This document shows, piece after piece, positions 7,903 to 56,411 of a DNA stretch of 64,000 nucleotides (the stretch's first letter is position 1; the number at the start of each line of letters is the position of its first letter). The stretch comes from Candidatus Shapirobacteria bacterium (lineage in GTDB: Bacteria > Patescibacteriota > Microgenomatia > UBA12405). The notes below the pieces were generated by a model. The model did not search any database. It worked only from the letters and a program-made list of their open reading frames with translations, and was not told where the DNA came from. The position numbers and the translations under genes are program-made. The DNA is taken from NCBI GenBank assembly GCA_041659325.1, contig JBAZYN010000001.1:430819-494818 (forward strand), in the 5' to 3' direction.

Positions 7903-8964
7903 ATGGGAAAAACTTTTTTATGTATTAATTTCGGTTGCCGGGTCAACGCTGCCGAAACCAACCAATTCGCCCAAAAGTTAATTAGCGATGGTTATACTCC
8001 CCTCCTTTCTTCAAAGGAGGGGCCGGGGGTAGATTTAATCTTCATCAACACCTGTTCCGTCACCGCCAAAGCCAACATCGAATCTCTTGGCAAAATCCGC
8101 TCTCTTCGTCATCAGTACCCAAACGCAAAAATTGTCGTTTCTGGATGCGCCGATTTAAGAAATATTGAAGTATTACCGAATATTTCCATTATCAACAATG
8201 TTGAAAAAGAAAAAATTCTTGAAAAAATCAATGGCGCCTATCGCCCGCAAATAGGGGACAAGTTTAGTCATACCCACCGCTATATCTTAAAAGTTCAATC
8301 CGGCTGTACCCACAATTGCTCGTATTGTACCGTGCCCCAAAAAAGGCCATATCTGTGGTCTTTACCCATTACCACAGCCATCGATACGGTAAATCAGGCC
8401 ATAAAAAACGGCTATCAGGAAATCATCATCTCCGGCGTAAATCTCGACCAATACAAGTATGGTTTTTCCACCCTAATCGAATCTCTTTTAAAAAACACAT
8501 CCGTTCCCCTTATCTCCTTCGGCTCCATCCCCCTAAATTGCATCGATAGTCGCTTCCTTTCCCTAATGACAGATTACAGGTTACAGATTACCAATTTCCT
8601 CCATATTCCCCTCCAATCCGGCTCCGACAAAATCCTAAAACTCATGCACCGCCCTTACAATGTTAAAAAAATAAAAGAAATCTTTACTTCCTTAAAAAAT
8701 ATCACCCCCCGCCCTGTCAAGGGAGGGGCTGGGGGAGGGTTTAGTTTTGGTACCGACATCATTGTCGGCTTTCCCGGGGAAACCGATGCTGAATTTGAAG
8801 AAACATATAATTTGTGTAAACTTATCGGTTTTTCCAAAATCCACGTCTTTAGATTTTCCCACCGGCCCAATACTCTTATTACAGATTATTACAAATCGTG
8901 CCTTAAACCATCTAAAGTTGACATCAAATCCCGCGCCGAAAAACTCCGAAAACTTTCAACATAA
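7903..8964 (+). CDS. Radical-SAM methylthiotransferase, MiaB/MtaB/RimO family
   Basis: An N-terminal MTTase domain (INTCSVT), radical-SAM CxxxCxxC (CTHNCSYC), and 353 aa with no TRAM domain. Two in-frame Gly-rich insertions derive from the GGGAGGG repeat family. Confidence 0.8.
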   Translation: MGKTFLCINFGCRVNAAETNQFAQKLISDGYTPLLSSKEGPGVDLIFINTCSVTAKANIESLGKIRSLRHQYPNAKIVVSGCADLRNIEVLPNISIINNVEKEKILEKINGAYRPQIGDKFSHTHRYILKVQSGCTHNCSYCTVPQKRPYLWSLPITTAIDTVNQAIKNGYQEIIISGVNLDQYKYGFSTLIESLLKNTSVPLISFGSIPLNCIDSRFLSLMTDYRLQITNFLHIPLQSGSDKILKLMHRPYNVKKIKEIFTSLKNITPRPVKGGAGGGFSFGTDIIVGFPGETDAEFEETYNLCKLIGFSKIHVFRFSHRPNTLITDYYKSCLKPSKVDIKSRAEKLRKLST

Positions 8965-8966
8965 TG

Positions 8967-9004
8967 TTCTCCCTTGTCAAAGGGAGAATTAAAGAGGGAT
9001 TTAT
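8967..9004. repeat. Hairpin repeat element TTCTCCCTTGTCAAAGGGAGAA + TTAAAGAGGGATTTAT (family R1)
   Basis: Near-identical copies are at 6746-6777, 19588-19624, 22911-22957 and 54354-54390. Diverged copies are at 16690-16765, 42697-42749, 44228-44270, 47238-47276, 47419-47458 and 47481-47518. Intragenic copies are at 7998-8040, 8705-8748 and 54995-55034. Confidence 0.85.
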
Positions 9005-9069
9005 ATTGTTATTTCACCCTTTTTCTCCCCATTTACTAATTACTGATTACAAAGCTAATAATTTCTCCA

Positions 9070-10170
9070 TCACCTCCCAAACCACACTTCCATTTCATCA
9101 AAAACCGCATAGTTAAACGACACTTCCTGTCCCGGAAACCGCGCATTTTTACCCCAAATACAGGCTTTATTAACATCATCCCGCATTTGGCTAGAAATCC
9201 GTTTCAAGACATCATCAATAGTCTTTGTTTTTTTCATAATCAGCGGTTCTTTTTTATCACCCTCGGTATTTCTCTCATACCTCAGATATACCCGAACAAG
9301 TCCCAGCTCCCTCCAAATTTTTTCCTTTAATTCTTCCAGGCCAATCTCTTTATCCGCACTTAAAAATAATACTTCCCCGGTTTTTACTTTCGACTTTAGA
9401 CTTTCGACTTTAAAGTTATCAATTTTATTGATAATTCTCACTACCGGCATATATCTTCTGGATTTTGACAAGCCATCAATCAATACATCTACACTTTTGA
9501 TTTTTTCTCCAAACTGAATCAGAGCATTGTTATACCCCATTTCTTCGGCAATTTCCTCCACCAATTCTTTGTCAAAAGAATAATATGGATCAATAATTTG
9601 TATCGCTCCCTTATCAGTCCGGTTAATATGAATTTTGGGTGGTATCTGCCCCAATCTTATCCCCGATTTATAAAGTTCATTGGCCATAATATCCAGCCAC
9701 CCAATCCTTTTTACATCAGTCATTATCACCGCCAAGTCAGATGCTCTGATTACAGAAATCACTTTTTTCCCAAAACCTTTGTTTTCAGCCGCCCCCTCCA
9801 CAATACCGGGAAGATCCAAGATTTGAACTTTAACACCTTTATATTCCATCATTCCGGGGACCACGCCCAACGTAGTAAAATCATAATTTCCCACTTTCGA
9901 CTCAGCATTGGTCAGTTTATTGAGGAGTGTCGACTTTCCCACACTCGGTAGCCCCACCAAAACCACTGAAGCGTCACCGGAGTGTTTAATTGCATACCCT
10001 ACTCCTCCGCCTCCGCCTTTCCCCGACGAGCCCTGCAATTCATCCTGCAATTTAGCCATCTTGGCTTTCAAAAGTCCATGCAAGTGTTCCGTCCCTTTGT
10101 GGTATGGCGTGTCCCGAATCTCCTTCTCGATTCGAGACATCTTCATTTTTATTATTTCTTCTTTGGTCAT
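9070..10170 (-). CDS. DRG/Rbg-type Obg-family GTPase with C-terminal TGS domain
   Basis: An N-terminal helical region (TPYHKGTEHLHGLLKAKMAKL), G1 GLPSVGKST, G3 DLPG, then a TGS-like C-terminus. This architecture is typical of archaeal/eukaryotic DRG. Confidence 0.7.
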   Translation of the reverse strand: MTKEEIIKMKMSRIEKEIRDTPYHKGTEHLHGLLKAKMAKLQDELQGSSGKGGGGGVGYAIKHSGDASVVLVGLPSVGKSTLLNKLTNAESKVGNYDFTTLGVVPGMMEYKGVKVQILDLPGIVEGAAENKGFGKKVISVIRASDLAVIMTDVKRIGWLDIMANELYKSGIRLGQIPPKIHINRTDKGAIQIIDPYYSFDKELVEEIAEEMGYNNALIQFGEKIKSVDVLIDGLSKSRRYMPVVRIINKIDNFKVESLKSKVKTGEVLFLSADKEIGLEELKEKIWRELGLVRVYLRYERNTEGDKKEPLIMKKTKTIDDVLKRISSQMRDDVNKACIWGKNARFPGQEVSFNYAVFDEMEVWFGR

Positions 10171-10193
10171 TCTGATAAAATCACTAGATACAA

Positions 10194-11576
10194 ATGATAT
10201 TCATTCTTTCTCTTTTATTATTGCTTCTCAGCTACAATCAGTCTATTTTAGCATCCGAAAACATTTTTGGGGTGCATTTAACCCAACCACAGGACATTTA
10301 TACCGCAAAAGATATGATCAATAGTTCTGAGGGGGATTGGGGATGGGCCACAATTGTCATCAGAACCGATCAATTAAACCACCAAACTTGGCAGGACTTC
10401 TTTGACAATTGCCGTAAGTTCCACATTCAGCCCATTATCCGGCTAGCAACCGTGATGGAAAAAGAATGTTGGAAGCGGCCGGATTACACCGATATCGACA
10501 ATCTCGCCATATTTCTAAATTCTCTTAACTGGCCGGTCCGGGAACAGCCCGTAATCCTTTTTAACGAAATTAATCATGCCAAGGAGTGGGGTGGGGAAGT
10601 CGACATAAAAAATTACACCGACCTTGCCATTTACGCTTCCAAAAAATTCAAAGAACTTAACCCGAATTTCACTATTCTTACCAACGGTCTTGATCTGGCT
10701 GCCCCCGAAAACCCGCCTCTTAACAAATCGGCTAGCAATGTTTATCGGGAAATTTTTTTATACCGGCCGGAGTTTTTTGATTCAATCGACGCCATTGCCT
10801 CTCACTCCTACCCCAACCACGGCTATATTGGTACACCCAAAGACTCCGGGCAACACAGCATCAGAGGTTATCTGTGGGAGCAGGAATTTATCAAAAATCT
10901 CGGAATCAAAAAAATTTACCCAATATTTATCACCGAAACCGGCTGGCCCCACCGTCAGGGAGTCAAACCCGACAATGGTTTCTTTACCGCCGAAACCGCC
11001 ACCAGCTTTCTAAACCAGGCCTTCTCGATTTGGCAATCAGACCCCAACATCAAGGCCGTTACCCCCTTTATCTATAATTATCCGCATGAACCCTTCGATC
11101 ATTTTTCCTGGCTGAGCTTAGATGAAAAGCTGATGCCCGAATACCAAAAATTACTGGACACGCCAAAAAATCAAAATCAGCCGGAACAAATAACAAAATT
11201 CCATACCCAGGGCATAAAATTACCCTTTATCATTTTTACCGATACCGAATATACCGGAGAGATAGTATTAAAAAATATCGGCCAGTCAATTTGGGGAGAA
11301 AAAGGCAGTTTTTGCCTCAATCCCCAAACAACTCCAAATGTCCAACTAGACGCCATCTGCATCGGCAACGGCTTCATCTACCCAAATCAATCACTTCCCC
11401 TAAGTTTTAAATTCAAGATATTATCCGACAAAGAATTTAAAGGAAAAACTTATATTAGTTGGGAAAACACCGACACCTATCAGATTACCCCTTTTTATAG
11501 CAATGCCACTATCTACCGAAGTGAGCTCAGATTCAAAGACAAGATTATTAATTTTGTCGAAAAACTGATAAAATAG
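10194..11576 (+). CDS. Secreted glycoside hydrolase, clan GH-A (GH5-like TIM barrel)
   Basis: A signal peptide. A candidate acid/base NEINH and nucleophile ITETGW arranged as in clan GH-A. Confidence 0.5.
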   Translation: MIFILSLLLLLLSYNQSILASENIFGVHLTQPQDIYTAKDMINSSEGDWGWATIVIRTDQLNHQTWQDFFDNCRKFHIQPIIRLATVMEKECWKRPDYTDIDNLAIFLNSLNWPVREQPVILFNEINHAKEWGGEVDIKNYTDLAIYASKKFKELNPNFTILTNGLDLAAPENPPLNKSASNVYREIFLYRPEFFDSIDAIASHSYPNHGYIGTPKDSGQHSIRGYLWEQEFIKNLGIKKIYPIFITETGWPHRQGVKPDNGFFTAETATSFLNQAFSIWQSDPNIKAVTPFIYNYPHEPFDHFSWLSLDEKLMPEYQKLLDTPKNQNQPEQITKFHTQGIKLPFIIFTDTEYTGEIVLKNIGQSIWGEKGSFCLNPQTTPNVQLDAICIGNGFIYPNQSLPLSFKFKILSDKEFKGKTYISWENTDTYQITPFYSNATIYRSELRFKDKIINFVEKLIK

Positions 11577-11614
11577 ACCGTATTATTTGACAATTTATAA
11601 GTACTCCGGTGCAG

Positions 11615-11686
11615 GCGCCCATAGCTCAATGGATAGAGTACTAGTCTTCGGAACTAGTGATGTGGGTCCGATTCCCACTGGGCGTA
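11615..11686 (+). tRNA. tRNA-Arg (anticodon TCG)
   Basis: Cloverleaf with a G1-U72 wobble, anticodon loop CTTCGGA, T-loop GGTCCGATTCC. Confidence 0.75.
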
Positions 11687-11694
11687 CTTTACTT

Positions 11695-11768: not shown

Positions 11769-11778
11769 CCCATATTTC

Positions 11779-11928: not shown

Positions 11929-11938
11929 CCAACAATCC

Positions 11939-19577: not shown

Positions 19578-19623
19578 CATTATAGTTTTCTCCCTTGTCA
19601 AAGGGAGAATTAAAGAGGGATTT

Positions 19624-21049: not shown

Positions 21050-22878
21050 AACTAATTATTTCTGAGTTAAAAAAACTATTACCAAATTTATCCGTAGATC
21101 CGGAAACCCTACGCGACGATTTAACCATGTTGGGCCATTTTGCCTCCGGATTGAAAAAAATTGATGGCGAAATCGTCTTTGATCTGGAAATCCGCCAAAA
21201 CCGAGCCGATTGTCTCGGCTACTACGGCCTCGCTCTCGACCTATCCGTTTTTTATAATATTAATCTAATTTTACCAACACATCCAGTTTTACAGATTACA
21301 GACCTGCCCGCCAGTCAGGCGGGTTACCGATTACCAATTACCATAAACTCCCCCGATGTTAAGAGAATTCAGGCCATCAAAATCTCCGATCTAAAAATTG
21401 CCCCTTCACCAAATTGGTTAATTAAGTTTCTCACTCTTCACGACATCAATCCCATCAACAACCTCGTTGACCTCACCAACTACGCCATGTTGGTTTATGG
21501 CATCCCTTGTCATGCTTTCGATACGGCCAAGACCACCGATAATTTGATTTGGGAAAACAATTCAAAATACAAAAGTCTTGTTTCCCTCGACGGCACTACT
21601 CTGGCATTAAAAGATAACCTCATTATTAGCAATCCCCATGAATGTCTGTCTTTGGGGTTTATTGGAGGTAAGAATTCGGGCATCGAAAATTCAACGGGCG
21701 ATACTATTTTAGAAATGGCCATTTACAACCCCACCCGTATCCGCGCCGATTCCCGTAACTTAAAAACAATTACCGAGGCATCCATTCGTCTTGATAAGTT
21801 TTTAGACACCGAAACCATACCTCAAGCTTTCGCTTTTTTAGTGGACAATGTTTTAAAAATTTGCGGTGGCACTGTTTCTAGCCAATTATTTGAACAATAC
21901 CCCCAAAAACCCAGTCCCATTTTTATCCCTTTTGATCCGTCCAAACCATCCCAATACGCCGGTATAAATATCCCTGTTAATTTTTCGGTTGATATATTAA
22001 CCCGTCTTGGCTGCAAAATTAATGCAAATTTAGTCACTCCGCCGTCTCTCCGAAAAGATATCACCATCGAAGAAGATCTGATCGAAGAAGTCATCCGATT
22101 TTACGGCTACAACAAAATCCCCCTTGATACCCCAATCTCTGCCAATCCTCTAGCGGATATCACCCCAAAAATTCTGCATTTAATCGAATCACTCAAAGAC
22201 AGTTTGGTTTCCCTTGGCTACGACGAAGTCCGTTCCTGGCCTCTCGTTCAAAAACCATTATCCCGAAACGCAATTTATACCCAAAATTCCATAAATTCTG
22301 AATACCCGGTTTTAAGGGAATCAATTGTTCAATCCCTCAAAAACCAACTGGACCAGTTCAATCGATACAAATTACCCCAACCCCGCTTTTTCGAAATCGG
22401 CAAAATATATTATCAACAAGACAAAGAGTACCGCGAAAAATACGCTCTTGGTATTTCCAGTCACGATTCCGACAAGCTGATTTCCGACATCGAAAGCATA
22501 TTTCAAAAAAAGTTTTCCACTTTTAACTCCCAAAAAATGCAAAACCAACTTTTTGTTGAAATTATTCTCGACGATCTAGAAAAACCAATAGCTTATCTCC
22601 CAAAAAACACCACCAATACCGCCATCGAGCTCACTTCTCAGATTATTACTCTCGACGCCAACGTTACATTTGATTCTCGACAGGATCCCATTTCTCTAAT
22701 CCGGCAATACACCAAAACTATTGGTCCTCAATATCTTTGGCAAATTATCGTCACCGACGAATACCAGGACCAACCGACGGGCAAATATCGTTACACTTTT
22801 CGTGTCTCCTATTACAACTGCGACGACAAAACCGCCAAACAGCTCCATCTCAAATCTTTCGACCTGATCAAAATTTAA
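21046..22878 (+). CDS. pheT: Phenylalanine--tRNA ligase beta subunit (short form)
   Basis: The B3/B4 and B5 domains and a C-terminal FDX-ACB-like domain. Its ATG overlaps the pheS TGA (ATGA). Confidence 0.85.
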   Translation: MKLIISELKKLLPNLSVDPETLRDDLTMLGHFASGLKKIDGEIVFDLEIRQNRADCLGYYGLALDLSVFYNINLILPTHPVLQITDLPASQAGYRLPITINSPDVKRIQAIKISDLKIAPSPNWLIKFLTLHDINPINNLVDLTNYAMLVYGIPCHAFDTAKTTDNLIWENNSKYKSLVSLDGTTLALKDNLIISNPHECLSLGFIGGKNSGIENSTGDTILEMAIYNPTRIRADSRNLKTITEASIRLDKFLDTETIPQAFAFLVDNVLKICGGTVSSQLFEQYPQKPSPIFIPFDPSKPSQYAGINIPVNFSVDILTRLGCKINANLVTPPSLRKDITIEEDLIEEVIRFYGYNKIPLDTPISANPLADITPKILHLIESLKDSLVSLGYDEVRSWPLVQKPLSRNAIYTQNSINSEYPVLRESIVQSLKNQLDQFNRYKLPQPRFFEIGKIYYQQDKEYREKYALGISSHDSDKLISDIESIFQKKFSTFNSQKMQNQLFVEIILDDLEKPIAYLPKNTTNTAIELTSQIITLDANVTFDSRQDPISLIRQYTKTIGPQYLWQIIVTDEYQDQPTGKYRYTFRVSYYNCDDKTAKQLHLKSFDLIKI

Positions 22879-22953
22879 AGTCAAAACTCCCCGTCAAATG
22901 ACAAGCTATATTCTCCCTTGTCAAAGGGAGAAACCCCGAAAAGGGGAGAGGGA

Positions 22954-28822: not shown

Positions 28823-28892
28823 CCATAGTTAGTTAATTGCCAGTCAACTTTCTACTTTCAACTTTCTACTTTCTACTCTATAATACCCCTAT

Positions 28893-29045
28893 ATGACAGC
28901 CTTACCTAAACATTGGCCATCCAGTCGCCGCCAGGGAAAAAGACGTGCCAGTCAAACCGGCCCAAAACTTCAAAAAACCGTTAGCTGCAAACACTGCGGC
29001 CAGCCAAAAATGGCCGGCTATCAATGCTCAAACTGTAAACAGTGA
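28893..29045 (+). CDS. rpmF: 50S ribosomal protein L32
   Basis: A 50-aa protein, MTALPKHWPSSRRQGKRRASQ...CKHCGQ...CSNCKQ, with a basic N-terminus and a Cys4 zinc ribbon. The ORF track missed it because it is under 60 aa. Confidence 0.75.
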   Translation: MTALPKHWPSSRRQGKRRASQTGPKLQKTVSCKHCGQPKMAGYQCSNCKQ

Positions 29046-38580: not shown

Positions 38581-39936
38581 TTACTCAGTTCCTATTGTCA
38601 TCCCCACACTATTTGCCACTGTCAACCGTGCCATCGAGGGCGGACCATTTGGACCGACACATGTAATTCTATTTATTGCCCCAACACCCCAACTGCCGTC
38701 ACATGCGCTAATCGCGTGTACCCAAATATCATACGTCCCTCCCGGTTCAAAAGTATAATATTTGTAAGTCGTACTCACATCCTCACAAACATCTCCCGGG
38801 TTGGTTGGGGTACATGCACTGTTAAAAGAACTTGGCGAATCATCAACCCTCAAAGGATAATAGTCAGCCCCGGCCACCGGATTCCAGGATATTCTATTTC
38901 CGGCCACATCACAGACTAGTCCGGCCGGATTGGCAACCGGCTCACAGGCTGAATCAGGGATTGGTGTCGCCGACGGGGCACAAGCCGCGCAATTCCACGA
39001 CCCCCCTCCGTCTACATACATACAGACCAAGGGTGAATTCAGGCATTCCATGTGGCAACAATTTAATCCATAAACAGAATTCCCCCAATCTACATAACAA
39101 GACGATGCCGACACTTTTACCCCACAAACGCCACATGAAGCATCACATAGGGGATAGCCTGGTCCGGGAGTATTGGTGGGAGTAGGGGCTATTGTCCTCG
39201 TTGCTGTTGGCGCTCCCGGTACCGGAGTCCGGGTTGCCGTTGGCGTCGGAGTCCGGGTTGCTGTTGGCACTCCCGGTACCGGTGTCCGCGTTGCCGTTGG
39301 CGTCGGTGTCCGGGTTGCTGTTGGCACTCCCGGTACCGGTGTCCGCGTTGCCGTTGGCGTCGGTGTCCGGGTTGCTGCTAGCGTCGGTGTCCGGGTCGGA
39401 GTCGGAGTCACACAGGAAGCAGACGATATACAGCTCACCGTCCCGCTAAAGCTTTTCTTTCCGTCCCATCGGCTGCAATAAGTCCCATCATTCCTCAAAA
39501 TTTGATTTGAAGGACAGCTCAAACTCACGCTAGGGCCCGATACCCAACCCGTATTGCAAGCCCCCAATCCACACCAATTTAATCCTGACCACCCGCACGA
39601 TTCATTCCAAACACTGGTTTGGCAGGCAGGTGCGGGAGTCGACGTCGGCACCGCAACCGGGGTAGAAGTAGGCGGAGTTCCACAGCTTGTATTCTCTCCA
39701 TTACACTGATCACTTCCTTCACCGGAAACTGTTTTACAAACATAACTGCTGTTACAAGTCCGCCGGCAACAAGAATCGCTATTTGTATAATTACACCCCC
39801 CCGCAGGGGTACAACACGACATATTACAAACTCCATGACTACTGTCGCAATTACAAGCCCCCTGGGCAAAAGTAGGACGTGGCGAAAACAAAACGGTACT
39901 CAACAAAAACAATAAATACAAAAAAACTATTTTCAT
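38581..39936 (-). CDS. Secreted cysteine-rich protein with Thr/Pro tandem repeats (paralog family member D)
   Basis: Signal peptide. The module CDASCGVCGV...NCCHMEC...CAACAPS is shared with the 33860 gene. There are 3.5 copies of a 19-aa TRTPTPTATRTPVPGVPTA repeat. Confidence 0.6.
   Translation of the reverse strand: MKIVFLYLLFLLSTVLFSPRPTFAQGACNCDSSHGVCNMSCCTPAGGCNYTNSDSCCRRTCNSSYVCKTVSGEGSDQCNGENTSCGTPPTSTPVAVPTSTPAPACQTSVWNESCGWSGLNWCGLGACNTGWVSGPSVSLSCPSNQILRNDGTYCSRWDGKKSFSGTVSCISSASCVTPTPTRTPTLAATRTPTPTATRTPVPGVPTATRTPTPTATRTPVPGVPTATRTPTPTATRTPVPGAPTATRTIAPTPTNTPGPGYPLCDASCGVCGVKVSASSCYVDWGNSVYGLNCCHMECLNSPLVCMYVDGGGSWNCAACAPSATPIPDSACEPVANPAGLVCDVAGNRISWNPVAGADYYPLRVDDSPSSFNSACTPTNPGDVCEDVSTTYKYYTFEPGGTYDIWVHAISACDGSWGVGAINRITCVGPNGPPSMARLTVANSVGMTIGTE
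39186..39410. repeat. 57-bp tandem repeat (about 3.5 units) inside the CDS
   Basis: A direct repetition of GTTGCTGTTGGCACTCCCGGTACCGGTGTCCGCGTTGCCGTTGGCGTCGGTGTCCGG with a few substitutions. Confidence 0.85.
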
Positions 39937-39955: not shown

Positions 39956-40432
39956 TTATTTCTTAATTACTTTAACTTTATAATTATATTCTTTTGCTAG
40001 ACCTTTGACTGAATAAGGAAACTCCCCTAGCTGCTCAAAACTCCTGGTCCACTCCTCCCCGGGCAATATCGTCCTCGGCCCCATAAGTTCAAACTCTACC
40101 GCCACCATGCTATCGGTTCCGTTTCTAAAGGTAACAAAATCATGAAATCCCAAAATTCTGGACTGATCTTCGGCCGAAAGGCCGTTTTCGCCGATAACAA
40201 ACTCAAAAGTTTCCGCTTTTTTCGCCATCTCTTCTTGTTCTGGGGTATAAGTAGGTACTATCGCCTCCTTTTCTTTTGGGATAACTTGATTTCGGCTTTT
40301 ATTACCGATTCCACCCTCTGCAACATATCTCATCCCCACCGATCCGACCAACACCAACACGCCCAAGATAAAAAATACCAATCCCAACGAAACCTTCGCC
40401 GTAGCTCCTCTTTTAAACAAATTATCAATCAC
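39956..40432 (-). CDS. Hypothetical membrane-anchored protein
   Basis: An N-terminal TM helix. 158 aa. Confidence 0.4.
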   Translation of the reverse strand: MIDNLFKRGATAKVSLGLVFFILGVLVLVGSVGMRYVAEGGIGNKSRNQVIPKEKEAIVPTYTPEQEEMAKKAETFEFVIGENGLSAEDQSRILGFHDFVTFRNGTDSMVAVEFELMGPRTILPGEEWTRSFEQLGEFPYSVKGLAKEYNYKVKVIKK

Positions 40433-40466
40433 AACTAAAGATTAAAGTATCCCCGCACCTATGTCA

Positions 40467-40498
40467 ATCGAGGCGGGATCTTTCGATTCCCGCCTCGA
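40467..40498 (-). terminator. Perfect 11-bp-stem hairpin TCGAGGCGGGA-N10-TCCCGCCTCGA downstream of the 40524 gene
   Basis: It lies 26 nt after the stop. A near-identical copy (one mismatch) follows the 41528 gene at 41453-41482. Confidence 0.45.
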
Positions 40499-40523
40499 TT
40501 ATCTACTTTAAATTCAACTTATC

Positions 40524-41123
40524 TTACGGACGCCTTCGTCTTGGCGCTCTGACAACCGGTTTGGCTGGAGGATTTTCTACCATAGAATCCCCTACAAACG
40601 ATTCAGCTGCTCCACAGGATGGTTTTCCTCGCCACAGAGGAGTATCAAGCGGATATTCGGTCACTATCAGAAAAGTGCCGTCATCTAGCCTACCTAAAAT
40701 TGTCTCTGTCGGGAAGACTCCAGGTCCGTCACCAATCTTAACTGTCTCTGTCGCCGAGGATCTAGGATCACCGCCAACCCAACTGAGTCCGGGTCTTGGT
40801 TGCCACGGAGCAGATGGATATGTATCGTCGATTCTACTCACTCTCACGGCTACCCCGCACCTATTAATAGTCCAATCACCAGAACCATTGACACTATAAT
40901 TTTCCTGTATCGCTAGCTGTCTCTCTATGGGCAGTACCGGCAATACCACTCTGTTTTCCGTATCTCTGGACACACCCCCCTCTTCTGCCTTAGCAACACC
41001 ACTAACTGCAGCCCCACCAGCACCAAGTAATAATGTCGCCAACCCCACCCTGGCAACATATTCTACAAACCCAACATGTCTTTTAGCAGATCCTTCATTA
41101 TTTCTTCTAATATTTCTTTCCAT
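40524..41123 (-). CDS. Secreted protein, tandem paralog 1 (conserved 45-aa N-terminus, unique C-terminal domain)
   Basis: The N-terminus MERNIRRNNEGSAKRHVGFVEYVARVGLATLLLGAGGAAVSGVAKA is about 80% identical to the N-terminus of the 41528 gene product. The upstream region is duplicated. Confidence 0.55.
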   Translation of the reverse strand: MERNIRRNNEGSAKRHVGFVEYVARVGLATLLLGAGGAAVSGVAKAEEGGVSRDTENRVVLPVLPIERQLAIQENYSVNGSGDWTINRCGVAVRVSRIDDTYPSAPWQPRPGLSWVGGDPRSSATETVKIGDGPGVFPTETILGRLDDGTFLIVTEYPLDTPLWRGKPSCGAAESFVGDSMVENPPAKPVVRAPRRRRP

Positions 41124-41300
41124 TTATTTTTATTTAAAAAATAATTAATTAGCGAACAGACGTAATATAACAAATATTCTAGGACATGTCAATATCATAT
41201 TTACTCTATCCTTGCATACAATCAATTATATCAAAAAATTTAAAATATTCATTATAAAATATTATACACACCAATTACACACGCCAAAAATCACTCCTCC
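41124..41300. repeat. About 180-bp direct repeat (promoter/5'UTR), copy 1
   Basis: More than 90% identical to 42029-42205. Confidence 0.85.
41164..41192 (-). promoter_or_regulatory. Consensus sigma70-type promoter TTGACA-17-TATATT
   Basis: Read on the minus strand, about 45 nt upstream of the ATG. It lies inside the 180-bp direct repeat. Confidence 0.5.
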
Positions 41301-41527
41301 CATTCTAAAAAAATCAACCCTAAAGAAATTTTCGCCTCCCCCCTATCTCTTTTTTTATCAACACCGCCGCCCCCGTCCGAAAAACATAAAGATTAACTCC
41401 TAGTCACAAATAAAGACTAATGAATTACTTCTCGTATGTCAATCGAGGCGGGATCTTTCGATTCCCGCCTCAATTAATTACTTAAATTCAAACCTACTCT
41501 GCAAACCCCACTTGCATTGCAAACGAT

Positions 41528-42028
41528 TTACCTTGGTCCGCAAGTTGGTTCTCCCTGCGATAAATCAGTCCCACCCCTATATTCGATCACATATAATACG
41601 CCATCCTTTGTCATTGTCCCTACAGGTCTCCACTCATTGCCAAGGCGGCTCTTTCCTCCTGTAGCTTGCCACGGAGCATCCGGATAGTCGGGTGTTCTTG
41701 GGCCTTCACCTGGGACGGGAATCGGAGTCATTTGGGTACCTGTTCCACACTCGTCAACAAAAAAACGACCGGCATTACCATCTCTGGCTCTGACCATATA
41801 GTCTATTATTATTCCTAATCGTTCACCGAGAGATACTCTCGGCAATACCACTCCACTTTCCTTACCGGTTCTATACGCTTCACTAACCTCTGCCTGAGTA
41901 ACGCGACCAATAGCAGCCCCACCAGCACCAAGTAATAATGTCGCCAACCCCACCCTGGCAACATTTTCTACAAGCCCAACATGTCTTTTAACGGGTTCTT
42001 CATTATTTCTTACAATATTTCTTTCCAT
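41528..42028 (-). CDS. Secreted protein, tandem paralog 2
   Basis: The N-terminus MERNIVRNNEEPVKRHVGLVENVARVGLATLLLGAGGAAIGRVTQA, followed by a divergent C-terminal domain. Confidence 0.55.
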   Translation of the reverse strand: MERNIVRNNEEPVKRHVGLVENVARVGLATLLLGAGGAAIGRVTQAEVSEAYRTGKESGVVLPRVSLGERLGIIIDYMVRARDGNAGRFFVDECGTGTQMTPIPVPGEGPRTPDYPDAPWQATGGKSRLGNEWRPVGTMTKDGVLYVIEYRGGTDLSQGEPTCGPR

Positions 42029-42205
42029 TTATTTACTATTTAAAAAATAATTAATTAGCGAGCAACCGTAATATAACATATATTCTAGGACATATCAATA
42101 TCATATTTACTCTATCCTTGCATACAATCAATTATATCAAAAATATTAAAATATTCATTATAAAATATTATACACACCAATTACACACGCCAAAAATCAA
42201 TTTCT
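42029..42205. repeat. About 180-bp direct repeat, copy 2
   Basis: See 41124-41300. Confidence 0.85.
42070..42098 (-). promoter_or_regulatory. Sigma70-type promoter TTGATA-17-TATATT (duplicate)
   Basis: The same architecture as 41164-41192, in the second copy of the 180-bp repeat. Confidence 0.45.
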
Positions 42206-42772
42206 TATCTTTATTTCCGAGGAAAAGTATTTCGAAACAAAGTCACTCGGGCCACCGCCCGATAGGCCGGAGCTCAAATAAAATCCCACGCTCAAATCGA
42301 CCACTTTTCCTGTCGATGGGGAAGTCGTCCCGCTGATAAAATTCCCGCAACCGCTCACCTCCACTTCTTCGCCGCTCAGCCGAACGGTATTCGCCGACAC
42401 CGATGCAATTTGGCTATCTGCCGACTCCACACATTGAATTGTCGTCCCTATGCTCGACAAGGAAACCCAAGATTTATCCGCCGGGTCCAATTCGATTGTC
42501 TCTCCCGGAGCATTTATCACGTTTTTTCTGATTTCCGACAATACCCAAGCCCCATTCTGCTCCACCTTATCCGCCCAATTGATCCTGTTTTTCGCCTTAA
42601 AAGAATTAACCAAAACGGTAGTTATAGAAGTCAGGATAAACCCCATCACTGATACCACCACCACTATTTCAATCAAACTAAAACCCATCCTTTTAATCTC
42701 CCTTTCGTCAAAGGGAGATACCCCCACAATAGTGGGGGAGAGGGATTTTGCTTTTGACTCTTTTCTTCTCAT
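42197..42772 (-). CDS. Prepilin-like protein (class III signal, G|FSLIE)
   Basis: KRMGFSLIEIVVVVSVMGF. An R1 repeat copy lies in the putative leader-coding region, so the start could instead be the M directly before G. Confidence 0.65.
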   Translation of the reverse strand: MRRKESKAKSLSPTIVGVSPFDEREIKRMGFSLIEIVVVVSVMGFILTSITTVLVNSFKAKNRINWADKVEQNGAWVLSEIRKNVINAPGETIELDPADKSWVSLSSIGTTIQCVESADSQIASVSANTVRLSGEEVEVSGCGNFISGTTSPSTGKVVDLSVGFYLSSGLSGGGPSDFVSKYFSSEIKIRN

Positions 42773-43669: not shown

Positions 43670-43834
43670 ATATATAAATCTACCATATTACGTCATTACG
43701 ATCCTGAGCCCGTCGAAGGAGTGACAATCTTTAAACCTGCGACTTTGTAGGAAAATCACCACAACCTTCGGTCTCGAAATAACGAGCAGTGTTCTCCTTA
43801 CAGATTACAGATTACCAATTACTGATTACCAAAT

Positions 43835-44275
43835 TTACGGCTGTGTCACCCGATAGTTACAATTTCCGGTCGTACACGATACCGCAGTCGCAATCGTTGT
43901 TCCTGTCTCCATCCTGGCATATAGAAAATAGGTGTAATTAGTCTGCCGGTCATAAACATAGGTATCGCTACTCGGCCCAACCGGGTAAGCCGACAAAAAC
44001 CCTCCCGAAGTCAATACTGATATGCTTGAGTCATCAGGATATGTCGTCCCCACCTGTCTCACCACTTCCAGTGCCATTCTGATTCTCTCCAAATCGGCCT
44101 GCCTTCTCCCGTCCCTTGCCTTTCTATTCGTCGTTCCGAAACTCACCGTCGCAATCGCCGTAATTATTGCAATTATAGTTATCACCACAATCAATTCAAT
44201 CAAACTGAAACCTAGTTTTTTTGTAGTGCCCCTCCTTTCGTCAAAGGAGGGGGTAGGGGTAGATTTAATTCTCAT
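43835..44275 (-). CDS. Prepilin-like protein (G|FSLIEL) with 22-aa leader
   Basis: KKLGFSLIELIVVITIIAI. Part of the leader is encoded by an R1 repeat copy (PSFDERRG). Confidence 0.65.
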   Translation of the reverse strand: MRIKSTPTPSFDERRGTTKKLGFSLIELIVVITIIAIITAIATVSFGTTNRKARDGRRQADLERIRMALEVVRQVGTTYPDDSSISVLTSGGFLSAYPVGPSSDTYVYDRQTNYTYFLYARMETGTTIATAVSCTTGNCNYRVTQP

Positions 44276-44733
44276 TGTTGATTCTTAACACAATAATGAG
44301 TCTTATTGCCAACCCCCGTAAAATTACAGCTAGCATTAATAGAATTTCCTGCAGTCGTATTTTCAAGCTGTGCGCATACGCAATAATCCGGTACACCAAC
44401 AACAAAACCTCCGGTAACCGTATATGGTGTCACATTCTTGGGATCAACAGGCCAAGCCTGCAAAAAACCTCCGCTGATTAAACCACTACTAAAAGCAGCA
44501 ACTGTTCCCACTGGTGGATACACTGAATTATTCATCAAATAATACTGCTCCGCCGCCGTCTGAATATTTTTCATATCCTGCATCCTTCTCGCATCCCGCC
44601 CTTTCTTTTGCGCGTTCGAATAAGACACCGTCGCAATCGCCGTAATTATTGCGATTATGGAAATTGTTATCAAAAGTTCAAACAAAGTAAAGCCTGTCTG
44701 CCGAAAGGCATGGCCATTTTTTATTTTTTTCAT
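44272..44733 (-). CDS. Prepilin (G|FTLFELL)
   Basis: MKKIKNGHAFRQTGFTLFELLITISIIAI. The ORF extends to 44754. Confidence 0.7.
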   Translation of the reverse strand: MKKIKNGHAFRQTGFTLFELLITISIIAIITAIATVSYSNAQKKGRDARRMQDMKNIQTAAEQYYLMNNSVYPPVGTVAAFSSGLISGGFLQAWPVDPKNVTPYTVTGGFVVGVPDYCVCAQLENTTAGNSINASCNFTGVGNKTHYCVKNQQ

Positions 44734-46422: not shown

Positions 46423-47220
46423 TTACTCTAACATTTTTTGGACATAGAAACCAACGCTCCCGCTCCACCACCAGGCCACCAATGTCCCCAATATCAGAAA
46501 CGGACCAAATGGTATGACTGATTTTCTTTTTACCTTTTTTACCGCCATCAATACCAATCCCACTATCGCTCCCGACACAAACGCCACATAAAAAGCCAGT
46601 ACTGTCTTTTCGGGGCCTAGCAACAATCCCATAAACACCGCATACTTTACATCTCCCATCCCCATCCCTTTCCCCTTAGTTATCACGTGTAAAAACAGTA
46701 AAAATCCTGCCGCTCCAACCGCCGCTAATAAATAAGGGACTACATTTTTCTCATCAAAAAACACCCCGGCAAAGGCGATAACAATCAGTATTATCGTAGA
46801 AAAATCCGGCAATATCATGTATCTAAAATCAAACACCGCACTAAACACCAACATCGTGATTATTACCAACTCCAAAACAAAAAAAACGTTAAATTCGTAA
46901 TTTGAAATTCGTAATTCGTAGTTAATTAAAAATAATATCCCCATTGTAATTTCTACAATAGGGTAGGAGACCGGTAAACTTTTGGCACAACATCTGGTTT
47001 TTCCGCCCTGCGTCAGCCACGAAATTATTGGCACATTCTCAAACCACCTCAACTGTCTTCCGCAATAATCACAATAACTCCTTTCTTGAGACTTTAGGAC
47101 TTTTGGACTTTTAGACTTTAAGACTTTATATCGAACAGCAGTTCGATAAACTACCATATTCACAAAACTCCCAAAGCACGCCCCCAAGACAAAAATCGTT
47201 ATCAAAAGCAACATTTCCAT
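46423..47220 (-). CDS. pilD: Prepilin peptidase (A24 family)
   Basis: An N-terminal Cys tetrad (CFGSF...CDYC) and the conserved Asp-containing TM core. It contains in-frame octamer and heptamer repeat insertions. Confidence 0.8.
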   Translation of the reverse strand: MEMLLLITIFVLGACFGSFVNMVVYRTAVRYKVLKSKSPKVLKSQERSYCDYCGRQLRWFENVPIISWLTQGGKTRCCAKSLPVSYPIVEITMGILFLINYELRISNYEFNVFFVLELVIITMLVFSAVFDFRYMILPDFSTIILIVIAFAGVFFDEKNVVPYLLAAVGAAGFLLFLHVITKGKGMGMGDVKYAVFMGLLLGPEKTVLAFYVAFVSGAIVGLVLMAVKKVKRKSVIPFGPFLILGTLVAWWWSGSVGFYVQKMLE

Positions 47221-47224: not shown

Positions 47225-47580
47225 TATTGTACTAATACCCCTCCTTTCCTCAAGGGAGGGATTAAGGGTGGATTTTTGCCCCTCCGTCATTACGAGGAGC
47301 AGTTATATAAGCGACGTGGTAATCGTTACAGAATTAAAATAGTCGAGTTGTTTCAGGATTACGAAGCCTGTCCCGAGAAACGAGGTATCGTTTCTCCTCG
47401 CAATGACAAACATTCTAACCCTCCCTTCGTCGAGGGAGGGAATAAAAGGGTGGGTTTGGCTTGAGGGTAGATTTAGATTTATCCCTCCCTTTTCAAGGGA
47501 GGGAAGGGTGGGTTTAACCTAAAACCCCGCCTTTCGGCGGGGTTAAATTCGTAATTCGTAATTACTAATTCCTGCCTGCC
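47225..47580. repeat. Repeat-dense intergenic region: four R1-family hairpins, AATTCGT heptamer repeats and a roughly 130-nt closed stem-loop element
   Basis: Hairpins CCCTCC(C)-loop-GGGAGGG at 47238, 47419 and 47481, and CCCCGCC-TTTCG-GCGGGG at 47523. GTCATTACGAGGAG at 47289 pairs with CTCCTCGCAATGAC at 47393. Confidence 0.7.
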
Positions 47581-47605
47581 GGCAGGCATGGCGTAATTAA
47601 CCTCA

Positions 47606-52445: not shown

Positions 52446-52490
52446 AATACATCTACATAATAAACATTTTCCCCAACCTTTACAATTACA

Positions 52491-53126: not shown

Positions 53127-53183
53127 CTTTAACCGCATTTTTACCTCAGTCACTTTTTAAAACAATGATATAATCTACTCAAG

Positions 53184-54317
53184 ATGTTTTCTCCCATCTT
53201 TTCAATCAATAACAAAATTCTAAAAACCATCGGGGTTATAGAAGGGGCAAAAGCTGTTATCGATGATGCTCCGTTAATTCCTGCCTACGAAAAACAGTTT
53301 CAGCAAGAGGCTGTTGTCCGCACTGTCCACTATGGCACCAGAATCGAAGGTAATGACCTAACCTTCCAAGAGGTTTCCCGCCTTGTCGAAGGTCAGCAAA
53401 TTACCGCCGGCGAAAGAGATATCCAGGAGGTCATCAACTACCGAAACGTTGTTTCCTACCTCGAAGAGCTCTGGTCTCTATACGATGCCAACCTGCCGCT
53501 TCCCGAAGAAAGAAATATAGCTTCAGCCGGCACCGAAGAAAAACGGCCGTTTTTTTACAGCGAAACCATTGTCAAAAGAATCCATCAGCTCACCACCACC
53601 AAAGTCATTCCCGAGACAGAGCTTGGGAAATACCGCCACCAACAGGTAGTTCTAAAAAACACCCGTACTGGCGAAATCGCCCACCGTCCGCCACCCGCCA
53701 TCGAAGTCCCGTATCTGATGACCGATTTAATAGACTGGCTCAACGATCCCTCCGGCCGGGAGATCCACTCCGCCATTCGGTCGGCTATCTGTCAATACCT
53801 TCTGGTTGCTATCCATCCATTCATCGAAGGCAACGGCCGTGTCAGTCGGGCTTTTGGCATGCTTCCTCTTTATGTCGAAGGTTACGACATCCGCCGTCTT
53901 TTCTCCCTCGAAGAATATTTTGACCGCAATGCCGAAGAATACTACGGTACTATTCAGGAAACTCACAATCTCTCCTCCGACATTTTCAAAAGAGACCTCA
54001 CCCTGTGGATTGAATACTTTGTTCTGGCTCTGAGTATCGAATTAAGCCGGGTAAGAGAAAAAGTTCAGACTCTCTCTCGCGATATCAAGTTAAAACAAAA
54101 ACTCGGCGGCAAACAGCTCCACCTTACCGAACGTCAGATTAAATTGGTTGAATACATGCAACAATTCGGCGGTCTTCGTATGCCCGACGCCCAAAGCCTC
54201 CTTCCCATGGTCTCCGACGACACCATCTGGCGAGATCTCAAAAAACTAGTCGACTCCGGCGCCATCGAGAAGCGCGGTTCCACCAAAGGCGCCTACTATT
54301 GCCTGGTTGATGTCTAA
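53184..54317 (+). CDS. Fic family protein
   Basis: The canonical Fic motif HPFIEGNGRVSR, plus a C-terminal winged-helix region. Confidence 0.85.
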   Translation: MFSPIFSINNKILKTIGVIEGAKAVIDDAPLIPAYEKQFQQEAVVRTVHYGTRIEGNDLTFQEVSRLVEGQQITAGERDIQEVINYRNVVSYLEELWSLYDANLPLPEERNIASAGTEEKRPFFYSETIVKRIHQLTTTKVIPETELGKYRHQQVVLKNTRTGEIAHRPPPAIEVPYLMTDLIDWLNDPSGREIHSAIRSAICQYLLVAIHPFIEGNGRVSRAFGMLPLYVEGYDIRRLFSLEEYFDRNAEEYYGTIQETHNLSSDIFKRDLTLWIEYFVLALSIELSRVREKVQTLSRDIKLKQKLGGKQLHLTERQIKLVEYMQQFGGLRMPDAQSLLPMVSDDTIWRDLKKLVDSGAIEKRGSTKGAYYCLVDV

Positions 54318-54419
54318 CATCATTGCCACTCGGTTTAGCAGGAGCAACAAGTGTTCTCCCTTGTCAAAGGGAGAATTAAAGAGGGATTTTGGCTGTAAGG
54401 TTTAAGCTATAATCACTCA

Positions 54420-56411
54420 ATGATCACCCTCGACACCCTCGATCTCCAACACTTGTCCCCGCAGGACTTAGGCGAGCTTCTTATCTCCGCCAAAAACGCC
54501 TATTACACCACCGGCAAGCCCATCATGGATGACCACACCTACGATACCCTTGAGGAAATTCTTCGTCAAAAAAATCCGCATCATCGGATTTTTCAAAAAG
54601 TCGGCAACAAAAATTTTGATACCGGCTTTCTCAAAAAATCCCATTCCATGCCCATGGGCTCCCAAAACAAAGTCACCACCGCCGCCGAGTTAGTCCACTA
54701 CTTCGAGCTAAAAAAAATCGCCGGAGGCAACGTTGATATGCAAAGCATATCTTACGTTGTTCAACCAAAAATCGATGGAATTTCCCTCGAAATCGAATAT
54801 AAAGACGGCAACCTAATCGATGCCATTACTAGGGGAGACGGTTTTATCGGTGACGTTATCACTCAAAATGTCGTCCGTATGCAAAATTTCCGTGAAAGAT
54901 TAAATGAGGATTTTACTGGTACCATCCGCTGCGAAATCGTCGTTACCTACAAAGATTTTAAAAAACTAAACAAAATTGTTGAAAAAAATAATACTCCCTC
55001 CCATTTTCAAGGGGAGGGTGGGGGAGGGGTTTCATACTCCAATCCCCGCAATGCCGTCTCCGGCATTTCTCAACGGTTAGACGGAAAATTTTCCGAATTA
55101 TGCAGTCTGATAGCCGTCGACATTTCCCCGGAACCGGCTTTGGAATCAGAAAAAATCACTAAACTTAAATCGCTGGGTTTCATTCCCGTCGAAACTCATC
55201 TCTGTCAAAATTTTAACCAAATCGAACAAATCTACCAACAATTTCTCACCAAAACCCGCAAAACTTATCCCTTTGAAATTGACGGCTTAATAGTCAAAAT
55301 AAATAATCTGAAAATTGCCCATCATCTTGGTTCCAAAAATAATCGGCCAAAATTTCAAATCGCATACAAATTCCCGGCCGAAAGCAATCAAACTCAAATC
55401 AAGAAAATTGAATGGCAGGTCGGTCCTTTGGGTACTATTACCCCGGTTGGTCAAGTTGAGCCAATTGAGTTGACCGGCGCTGTCATTACCTTCGCCTCCC
55501 TGGGTAATTACGATTTGGTTATTCAAAAAAACATCAATATTGGCGATATTGTAGAAATATCCCGTCGCGGCGATGTTATTCCCCATGTCGAAAAAATCAT
55601 CACCAAGGTCAACCCGGGCCATGTTGATATCCCCATCCTCTGTCCCAGCTGTCAAACTAAATTGATCAAAGAAGACAAATTCCTCCGCTGCCCCAATCCA
55701 AAAAATTGTTTAGCCCAAATATTAGGGTCTCTGCGCCTTTTTTGTGATACCCTTGGCATCCTTGGTCTTTCCGACAAAACCATCGCCAAACTCTATCAAG
55801 CCGACAAAATTCGTCTCCCGGGAGATTTCTACAAACTAACCATCGGCGACATTAGTAATCTTGTTAATCTTGGAGAAAAATCAGGCAAAAATATTATTTA
55901 CCAAATCCAAACCAAAAAAAACCTGACCCTCAAGCAAGTTTTTGATGCCGCTATCATTCCCAATTTCAGCGCCGCCCGTATTCAACAATTAATTACAGCC
56001 GGTTTCAATACCCCGGAGAAACTTTTAAATATTTCCAAAGTCGAAATTGAATCTCTCCCCGGTTTTCAAAAAACCCTGGCCGAAAAAATTCAGGCGGGAA
56101 TAGAGTTACGAAAAGAATGGTTAAAATCCATCCTCTCCCAAGTTCAGATTACCAACCACCAATTACCAGTTACCAATTACAGATTACAAGGCCTAGCCTT
56201 CGCTATCACCGGCGATCTTTCCCAACCCCGAAAAAAAATTGAAGATCTGATCGAACAAAACGGGGGATCAGTCAGTTCTTCGGTTTCCAAAAATACTTCT
56301 TACCTCATAACAAACGAAACTAAGTCAAATTCTTCAAAATTTCTCGCCGCCAAAAAATTCGGTACCAAAATCATCACCGAAACTAAGTTTCTAGAACTCA
56401 TTAACTCGTAA
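54420..56411 (+). CDS. ligA: NAD-dependent DNA ligase
   Basis: The adenylation motif KIDGIS, OB-fold, Zn finger (CPSCQ...C..C), HhH and C-terminal BRCT. It contains in-frame R1 and ATTACNN repeat insertions. Confidence 0.9.
   Translation: MITLDTLDLQHLSPQDLGELLISAKNAYYTTGKPIMDDHTYDTLEEILRQKNPHHRIFQKVGNKNFDTGFLKKSHSMPMGSQNKVTTAAELVHYFELKKIAGGNVDMQSISYVVQPKIDGISLEIEYKDGNLIDAITRGDGFIGDVITQNVVRMQNFRERLNEDFTGTIRCEIVVTYKDFKKLNKIVEKNNTPSHFQGEGGGGVSYSNPRNAVSGISQRLDGKFSELCSLIAVDISPEPALESEKITKLKSLGFIPVETHLCQNFNQIEQIYQQFLTKTRKTYPFEIDGLIVKINNLKIAHHLGSKNNRPKFQIAYKFPAESNQTQIKKIEWQVGPLGTITPVGQVEPIELTGAVITFASLGNYDLVIQKNINIGDIVEISRRGDVIPHVEKIITKVNPGHVDIPILCPSCQTKLIKEDKFLRCPNPKNCLAQILGSLRLFCDTLGILGLSDKTIAKLYQADKIRLPGDFYKLTIGDISNLVNLGEKSGKNIIYQIQTKKNLTLKQVFDAAIIPNFSAARIQQLITAGFNTPEKLLNISKVEIESLPGFQKTLAEKIQAGIELRKEWLKSILSQVQITNHQLPVTNYRLQGLAFAITGDLSQPRKKIEDLIEQNGGSVSSSVSKNTSYLITNETKSNSSKFLAAKKFGTKIITETKFLELINS

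Follow-up and report, generated by a model that had tools for sequence, protein, structure and literature searches.

Dispersed heptamer repeats have been known in cyanobacteria since 1990 and were later found in Beggiatoaceae, Xanthomonas and Bacteroidetes. In Nostoc, small dispersed repeats (SDRs), hairpins of 21-27 nt that Elhai et al., as cited in PMC3116915 and PMC2884548, are said to have described in 2008, are reportedly located within such heptamer arrays. The present work concerns tandem arrays of ATTAC[A/C/T][A/G] units in a 64-kb stretch of DNA (positions 1-64000, hereafter the window; GC content 43 %) from a metagenome-assembled genome (MAG) of Candidatus Shapirobacteria, which belongs to the Microgenomates of the candidate phyla radiation (CPR). 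The arrays lie between genes and inside the genes for a MiaB-like methylthiotransferase, for PheT and for the NAD-dependent ligase LigA.

Several described systems come close to these arrays. The TAACTGA direct repeats have a patchy distribution in Beggiatoaceae, Cyanobacteria and Bacteroidetes and are mainly intergenic, often directly upstream of start codons; in the opposite orientation they are translated as LSVISYQ, and their coding copies are mostly found in hypothetical proteins or protein termini (MacGregor 2015, PMC4679880). Heptamers were also recognized as an over-represented class of long simple sequence repeats (SSRs), for which polymerase slippage was proposed; the examples, GGGAATC in Xanthomonas and GGGGA(T/C)T in Nostoc, are G-rich, quadruplex-forming and intergenic (Rehm 2015, PMC4692102). 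As cited in the latter paper, three heptamer families (short tandemly repeated repetitive sequences, STRR) were reported in Calothrix PCC 7601. The Rickettsia palindromic elements (RPE; Ogata 2000), as summarized in a review (PMC3184786), are palindromic insertions of 100-150 bp with filled and empty sites, present in-frame in genes. A literature search on repeats in Shapirobacteria or Microgenomates returned nothing, and nothing was found on such repeats in CPR bacteria.

The ATTAC[A/C/T][A/G] tracts of the window are probably one of several STRR-like dispersed heptanucleotide repeat families, made by slippage and tolerated and translated in tolerant protein segments, with the hairpin in the PheT array as a separate insertion. 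An earlier note, made from the letters of the window alone, had reported the arrays between genes and within miaB, pheT and ligA, as well as a hairpin inside the pheT array. All of them were found (Table 1), the hairpin being CCTGCCCGCCAGTCAGGCGGG, and their number is far beyond chance. The pattern ATTACNNATTAC gave 8 matches in the window versus 0.21 expected, and three TTAC at 7-nt spacing (TTACNNN x3, TTACNNNTTACNNNTTAC) gave 8 matches versus 0.01 expected, every one on the + strand. Nine period-7 arrays were present versus 0.1 in shuffled sequences, and other periods showed no comparable excess. Tandem Repeats Finder (TRF) called period 7 at 8569-8591, 21324-21343, 43798-43829 and 56148-56180. 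The tracts consist of 3-6 imperfect units (76-92 % matches by TRF), in which the first base is sometimes G, C or T. Three of the five ATTACMR loci are coding, and the intergenic copies lie either between two convergent genes or at the 3' end of a gene. The LigA, PheT and MiaB-like products are 100 % identical to database proteins named Candidatus Shapirobacteria, and their 90 %-identity clusters have one member each.

The list of arrays given by the earlier note was correct for the ATTAC sites and incomplete otherwise, since the window has further families and further genes with arrays. At unlinked loci within 64 kb of one genome the ATTAC[ACT][AG] family occurs at five, ATTACGA at three (the AATTCGT arrays read ATTACGA on the - strand) and ACTTTNN at two, plus two 8-nt relatives. 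Three arrays outside the ATTACMR family are also coding, one in a GTPase gene and two in the prepilin peptidase gene. In the 1.02 Mb of related loci that served as the comparison set for the repeat census, period 7 was the commonest repeat period, with 60 arrays versus 2-36 for the others, except the harmonic period 14 (48 arrays). There, 28 of 62 arrays fell in the roughly 7 % of the DNA outside open reading frames (ORFs), which corresponds to an about 10-fold higher density there.

The peptide shared by the three genes follows from the repeat itself. As 7 and 3 have no common factor, a heptamer array runs through all three frames within 21 nt and the same cyclic heptapeptide is obtained from any of them: (ATTACAG)n gives cyclic ITDYRLQ in every frame and (ATTACCA)n gives ITNYQLP. 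The YRLQITN-like peptide is thus an arithmetic by-product of the DNA repeat and not an inserted protein module. It had been claimed that the three genes encode the same peptide, always in frame; the frame is indeed kept and the repeats are translated in housekeeping genes, but the identity of the peptides follows from coprimality and there is no shared module. ATTACAG and ATTACCA are stop-free in all frames, while their complements, CTGTAAT and TGGTAAT, contain TAA; therefore arrays of at least three units can survive in genes in the sense orientation only. The same orientation and stop-codon reasoning was given earlier by MacGregor for the TAACTGA repeats (PMC4679880). Among the 34 coding arrays of the 1.02-Mb set the sense consensus was stop-free in 19, and the other 15 use a stop-containing motif with the in-frame unit mutated. 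In a PheS example each third AAATTAG is altered to AAATTTG, AAATTCG or AAATTCT, so that the in-frame TAG is lost.

In each of the three codon phases there are identical units, and residues that recur are encoded by the same codons; the same families are present in non-coding DNA. Since the units are alike at all codon positions, occur also in non-coding DNA and are denser outside ORFs, these are DNA-level repeats. An explanation by coiled-coil heptads was rejected because third codon positions are identical in the DNA and non-coding arrays exist too. CRISPR was rejected as there are no spacers, and an assembly artefact was rejected because the arrays recur across independent assemblies and the ORFs stay intact.

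Ortholog DNA was retrieved, plus 80 PheS-PheT loci out of metagenomes; the closest LigA ortholog was compared as protein only. Related sequences are cited below by locus number (L). In the MiaB-like protein no gap was present at MTDYRLQITNF in the alignment of 59 Shapirobacteria orthologs, and the array segment is only 1 amino acid (aa) longer than in the solved MiaB of B. uniformis. In the AlphaFold model it extends from a helix end through a loop into the first part of the FLH strand. The PheT linker between the DCLGYYG and DVxRI anchors has 42 aa here; of 39 orthologs nearly all have 34-37 aa, with arrays or without them. The seven extra codons, found in this genome only, are exactly the hairpin CCTGCCCGCCAGTCAGGCGGG (21303-21323). 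When it is removed, TTTACAG ATTACAG A joins TTACCG ATTACCA ATTACCA in phase and an array of five units in a linker of 35 aa is restored. Residues 70-98 of the PheT model are coil, and the predicted local distance difference test score (pLDDT) is 53 over the hairpin-encoded part. The LigA tract is 3 aa (9 nt) longer than in the close ortholog L206 (identity about 72-75 %), which has no array there; it lies in the hypervariable HhH-BRCT linker, whose length differs by several residues among orthologs.

The unit numbers do not point to insertion either. They are about 4.5 in the MiaB-like gene, 5 in PheT and 6 in LigA. The tract lengths of the 34 coding arrays in the comparison set showed no preference for multiples of 21 nt, and the unit numbers modulo 3 were distributed as 11/14/9 for these arrays and 8/13/7 for the 28 non-coding ones. 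The arrays showed neither terminal repeats nor target duplications. Unlike miniature inverted-repeat transposable elements or RPE, they are direct repeats of 21-45 nt, and MiaB and PheT have no array length difference relative to their orthologs. They do not resemble phase-variable contingency loci, being short imperfect tracts in the MiaB-like, PheT, LigA, GTPase and PilD genes, where a frameshift would inactivate housekeeping genes. Judged from these alignments, the heptamer arrays are not net insertions, and the sole true insertion is the 21-nt PheT hairpin. The earlier note had taken the arrays for insertions present in multiples of three units, with selection acting on the insert length. 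The alignments contradict the first point, since the length is native in MiaB, the excess in PheT is the hairpin alone and LigA gains 3 aa, and the unit counts contradict the second. What survives of the third is that the reading frame must be kept by selection; the tracts are not insertions and their counts are not tied to three.

Conservation of the peptide in orthologs lacking the nucleotide repeat had been named as an outcome speaking against insertion, and this outcome was obtained for PheT. The peptide NY(Q/S/N)LPI(T/K), which is the translation of (AATTACC)3, is kept in a dozen orthologs with non-periodic DNA and mixed synonymous codons. Of the heptamer-type codons only TTA is enriched in these motifs (8/12 versus 30 % background), TAC and ATT are not, and any DNA-level trace is thus weak. 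The conserved motif could represent an old array fixed into the protein, which counts against a recent insertion. Arrays of eight units occupy the same place in the PheT linker of L121 (ATTACCA/GTTACCA) and of L122 (ATTACCG/ATTACCA). Other arrays in this linker are ATCGACA in L151, AGATATG in L154 and CGATCTA in L197, and most other orthologs have none. ATTACCA/ATTACCG arrays were found in L121, L122 and also in L193.

At the MiaB site, where the DNA of 5 sequences was sampled, five genomes have an equal codon count and arrays of four families. The window has ATTACAG, L204 (79 % aa identity) ACTTTCG x4, L207 ACTTTCA, L123 ATTATAG/ATTAAGA/ATTAAAA (ATTAARA) and L208 AATTAGA/AATTGGA (AGAAATT). 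The lag-7 identity at this site is 0.5-0.75 versus roughly 0.15-0.5 at lags 5, 6, 8 and 9. Between the window and L204 the array block is the least conserved part of the MiaB gene, with 39-45 % nt identity versus 78 % overall (sd 0.12, an outlier of about 3 sd), and the ortholog peptides are unrelated (STFDFRLSDF, KNYRLRIKNF, RNWKFRFRNF). An array at the GTPase site is orthologous in the window, in L204 (five perfect units) and in L123, and is absent from L207 and L208. The PheS linker just before GHLHP is an array hot spot, arrays of the AAATTAG or AAAATTG type being present in about 15 of 63 orthologs; other PheS orthologs have hairpin-element peptides before GHLHP, and the PheS of the window has neither. 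LigA of L205 has an AAATTAR array in the same linker and L206 has none. Many of the recurring families share an RGA core, e.g. AGATTAC, AGACTTT and AGAAATT. Four loci of the window share one mixture of ACAG and ACCA units, whereas the orthologous PheT arrays of L121 and L122 consist purely of CCA or of CCG units.

When species-representative genomes were scanned with ATTACHR x2.7, at least 120 loci were obtained. Among the matches listed, about half were from filamentous cyanobacteria (Calothrix, Fischerella, Nostocaceae, Microcoleus), where ATTACCA/ATTACCC is arrayed in 5-12 units, and one was an ATTACTG array of 22 units in a Microcystis genome. Others were scattered over three CPR genomes, Pseudoalteromonas, Bacteroidales, Chloroflexota and Planctomycetota, and the matches listed included no Shapirobacteria.

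The hairpin inserted in the PheT array has a relative in the window, CCTGCCTGCCGGCAGGCATGG, a 21-nt element with a 16-nt palindrome, which splits an intergenic AATTCGT array in exact phase (AATTACT AATT|CGT AATTAAC). Excision of either hairpin restores the exact heptamer phase. With a third, weaker copy there are 3 related copies in the 64-kb window. The 21-nt hairpin is frame-neutral because of its own length. Its relatives were found in L135, L155 and L189/L190, and the L189/L190 copy adjoins an AAAATTA array. Both its size and hairpin structure and its insertion inside heptamer arrays, with the PheT site empty in relatives, fit an SDR-like element. In a separate observation, the Shapirobacterium LigA P0014, seen as protein only, has a 7-aa insertion LPAGRHG that could be encoded by the 21-nt hairpin family. 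Heptamer arrays broken by short GC-rich inserts were also noticed in Calothrix L085 (3916-3982), in the planctomycete L033 (1886-1956) and in the Caldilineales MAG L100 (4729-4785). In two of these three cases the flanking arrays are inverted, and in Calothrix L085 the insert is 23 nt long and splits an AATTTGT/AATTCGT array.

Another hairpin, TCTCCCTTGTCAAAGGGAGA, is present in five exact copies, usually followed by ATTAA and in most cases placed shortly past the end of a gene (behind the MiaB-like gene and PheT, ahead of LigA). It looks like a dispersed element of the repetitive extragenic palindromic (REP) or terminator type. Its CCTCCC...GGGAGG variants are also found inside coding sequence, where they are translated as PRPVKGGAGGG (MiaB) and PSHFQGEGGGG (LigA), and orthologs show like peptides at variable loops (SPLxKGG..., VETHRMRL, RDVARNVST, VIASEARQS). 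The hairpin-encoded insert of MiaB is a low-confidence loop (pLDDT 52), absent from the solved MiaB.

According to the favoured reading of the arrays as slippage-made repeats, replication slippage together with slipped-strand conversion between neighbouring units would create and homogenize them. Within ORFs only length-preserving events, i.e. adjacent-unit conversion or steps of 21 nt, would be allowed. Coding arrays would then persist only where length is constrained and sequence is free, as in the PheT and PheS linkers, the LigA HhH-BRCT linker and the variable helix-to-strand connection of MiaB. Purifying selection retains frame and length and purges in-frame stop codons, and a separate SDR-like 21-nt hairpin mini-element lands inside the arrays. 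Several points weigh against this reading. Simple slippage by +/-7 nt would put essential genes out of frame, yet the units of coding arrays are alike at the 7-nt level, as in the L204 GTPase gene with TCGAAAG in five perfect units or in the L122 PheT with ATTACCG x4. A few families recur at unlinked loci and swap at one site without length change, which local slippage alone fails to predict. The MiaB segment is predicted with confidence (pLDDT about 90) and thus is not a floppy linker. Ongoing gain and loss of units in this genome would be deduced from the assembled sequence alone, and the CPR-wide spread is taken only from the matches listed among the at least 120 loci. The homogeneity of units within ORFs would suit templated overwriting of tolerant segments, i.e. 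ectopic conversion between arrays, or repair or reverse transcription filling gaps with genome-specific heptamers at unchanged length. Such a process could also account for four families at one site of identical length in five MiaB orthologs, for the strongly divergent MiaB block and for the unit mixture common to four loci of the window. We nevertheless regard it as unlikely, as neither a donor nor a template or enzyme was found, flanking homology that might drive conversion is not shared by arrays at different loci, slow concerted evolution across about 20 % protein divergence may serve instead, and the MiaB-site DNA comes from 5 sequences only. A more ambitious version, in which Shapirobacteria, and perhaps further heptamer-rich lineages, actively write or convert genome-specific heptamer tracts into tolerant DNA with length kept, by ectopic conversion or templated gap repair, and in which an array-targeting 21-nt hairpin forms a parasitic second layer, is speculative and rather improbable.

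The model of the earlier note, in which ready-made arrays act as a mobile insert and only insertions of three, six or more such units survive, has a correct frame logic in principle, and it agrees with the ATTAC family at 5 loci in 64 kb and with the LigA tract of about 6 units that is absent from the close ortholog L206. It is very unlikely all the same, because MiaB has no net insertion, the PheT linker without its hairpin has the native length and 5 units, LigA is longer by 9 nt and not by 21 or 42, unit numbers that are multiples of three are not over-represented among coding arrays, and neither terminal repeats nor target duplications were seen. The arrays could also be cis-acting DNA or mRNA sites for a regulator, as proposed for TAACTGA (PMC4679880), with coding copies functional or tolerated extras. 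The ACTTT-type arrays at 28844-28877 and 56412-56484 stop 8-12 nt short of start codons, and a promoter-like TTGACT-17-TAGACT is formed by one of the two; an AATTCGT array abuts tRNA-Ala, and arrays were found just upstream of thrS in L121 and L122. As a general account, which the sequence context suggests, this is quite doubtful: the intergenic ATTACMR copies lie at the 3' ends of genes or where two genes converge, and the motifs at orthologous sites differ among genomes. A regulatory role for some intergenic arrays is plausible from their placement, but it does not account for the coding copies. That a YRLQITN-like protein module is under selection, with the DNA periodicity secondary, could be argued from the NYxLPI motif kept in PheT orthologs without periodicity. 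This is extremely unlikely in view of the identical units in non-coding DNA, the identical codons of repeated residues, the unrelated peptides at the same sites in orthologs and the arithmetic that gives one peptide in every frame; for MiaB and LigA it is largely refuted.

The origin and function of heptamer repeats is a long-standing question in the known systems. Essential enzymes of a minimal CPR genome give fixed coordinates, with conserved flanks and constant length, for tracing the birth, homogenization and replacement of arrays across hundreds of metagenomic orthologs, which intergenic copies do not offer. As simple slippage by +/-7 nt is forbidden at the MiaB, PheT, PheS and LigA sites, replacement at constant length constrains the mechanism and makes the question of spread testable. 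If an active writing process did exist, it would keep re-coding linkers of essential proteins. The tracts make lineage-specific peptides in conserved proteins and can mislead alignment, annotation and the deduction of "insertions".

Table 1 Genes, heptamer and octamer arrays and hairpins discussed in the text. Coordinates are those of the window unless another locus is named
Feature	Coordinates	Strand	Units and context
MiaB/MtaB-like gene	7903-8964		UPF0004 + radical-SAM methylthiotransferase (Pfam)
PheT B3_4/B5 core	20932/21049-22878		Pfam
NAD-dependent ligase LigA gene	54420-56411		Pfam
ATTACMR array, MiaB-like gene	8566-8596	+	ATGACAG ATTACAG GTTACAG ATTACCA ATTTC; core of 3 units 8573-8593; translated MTDYRLQITNF
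ATTACMR-type array, intergenic	9032-9052	+	TTTACTA ATTACTG ATTACAA; between convergent MiaB-like and GTPase genes
ATTACMR array, PheT linker, 5' part	21288-21302	+	TTTACAG ATTACAG A
ATTACMR array, PheT linker, 3' part	21324-21343	+	TTACCG ATTACCA ATTACCA; codes YRLPIT; overlaps clade-conserved NYxLPI motif
ATTACMR array, intergenic, five units	43797-43831	+	CTTACAG ATTACAG ATTACCA ATTACTG ATTACCA; abuts stop codon of - strand pilin-like gene
ATTACMR array, LigA HhH-BRCT linker	56145-56189	+	about 6 units ATTACCA/ATTACAG; peptide QITNHQLPVTNYRLQ; span 56148-56189 = QVQITNHQLPVTNYRLQ
ACTTTCG/ACTTTAG array	9386-9412	+	antisense to GTPase gene; read as KVESLKSKV
ACTTTCT/ACTTTCA array	28844-28877	+	directly upstream of TATAAT box and small ORF starting at 28894
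AATTCGT array (ACGAATT in sense)	46892-46920	+	prepilin peptidase gene; codes NYELRISNYEF
8-nt AGACTTTN array	47089-47129	+	prepilin peptidase gene; peptide KVLKSKSPKVLKSQ
AATTCGT array, intergenic	47546-47601	+	split in phase by 21-nt hairpin CCTGCCTGCCGGCAGGCATGG; first part 47546-47570
8-nt ACTTTNAG array (AGACTTTN type)	56412-56484	+	upstream of 139-aa ORF at 56493; contains TTGACT-17-TAGACT
AATTCGT array	57539-57574	+	ends few bases upstream of tRNA-Ala
21-nt GC-rich hairpin CCTGCCCGCCAGTCAGGCGGG	21303-21323	+	6-bp stem; inserted in phase within PheT array
21-nt hairpin CCTGCCTGCCGGCAGGCATGG	47571-47591	+	16-nt palindrome; relative of PheT hairpin
21-nt hairpin, third copy	44693-44713		weaker copy
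Hairpin TCTCCCTTGTCAAAGGGAGA, five exact copies	6746-6765, 8968-8987, 19589-19608, 22912-22931, 54355-54374		usually then ATTAA
CCTCCC...GGGAGG variants, coding	8001-8020, about 8715-8747; 54997-55017		MiaB-like gene (first two); LigA (third)
CCTCCC...GGGAGG variants, coding, further	42698-42717, 44231-44250, 47420-47503		
PheS arrays (set L121-L203)	L193 9235-9269; L163 1380-1425; L135 5555-5591		peptides EIRNLKLEIRNS, KIENSKIENS

A promoter-like site was looked for at the array at 28844 and none was called. The 8-nt array before the ORF at 56493 has about 8 units here versus about 3 in the orthologous spacer of L206 (about 8050-8090). The GC skew is negative over the whole window, about -0.03 to -0.07 at the 5' end and below -0.2 (to -0.37) across most of it, whatever the gene orientation. 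The + strand is thus C-rich throughout, and the window appears to cover a single replichore. The ATTACMR arrays are all on this C-rich + strand, and a replication-strand bias is possible, the window holding one replichore only.

Other repeats were noticed in the window. A GC-rich 57-nt tandem repeat that contains 24-nt sub-repeats (39193-39409; 3.2 copies, 94 % matches) is part of the ORF 38581-39936 (-), which encodes 451 aa, has no Pfam match and adjoins type IV pilus genes. Pilin-like ORFs are covered by a tandem duplication of about 905 nt with 81-96 % identity (40429-41293 and 41404-42199), which includes a conserved hairpin TCGAGGCGGGATCTTTCGATTCCCGCCTCGA and two copies of the 13-mer ATTACACACACCA. 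Near-identical hairpins, GTCCGATGAAA(A/G)GTCGGAC after ACGTT, were found at 93-111 and 1899-1917, adjoining tRNA-Val and tRNA-Leu genes. The region around them is rich in tRNA genes, and the window has 13 tRNAs.

In comparison with the described systems, the arrays of the window resemble the TAACTGA repeats in that a 7-nt unit is repeated in tandem, from 2 to many times, at dispersed sites, with a patchy phylogeny, a stop-limited orientation and a fixed heptapeptide. They differ in the motif (the nearest unit here is TTACTGA), in the CPR host and in the stop-free strand, which is ATTACNN. They also differ in being internal in conserved housekeeping enzymes and in recurring at orthologous sites, with families replaced at constant length. 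With the SSRs of Rehm (2015) they share the enrichment of the 7-nt class, those repeats varying in length and sequence between related genomes at the same intergenic sites; unlike them, the window arrays are AT-rich and translated, with no structure predicted for them. Like the STRR, they comprise several heptamer families per genome that are common to related genera, and ATTACCA/ATTACCC itself is arrayed in cyanobacteria. Whereas the STRR are intergenic as far as they are described in the citing paper, the window arrays are short (3-8 units), imperfect and often coding. The likeness to RPE, as these are presented in the review, is that selfish or neutral repeats are translated at permissive sites in essential genes, but the heptamer arrays are neither palindromic nor net insertions, and their units stand in tandem. 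It is only the 21-nt hairpin, and not the arrays themselves, that is comparable by description with the SDRs, which are said to be likewise very small, hairpin-forming, dispersed and located in heptamer arrays.

The window arrays have a 7-nt unit repeated at least three times head to tail, many unlinked loci, a stop-limited orientation and the same family in other genomes, as dispersed heptanucleotide repeats do. They belong to this known kind; what is new is the CPR host, the frequent location in housekeeping genes and the way one family takes the place of another while site and length stay fixed.

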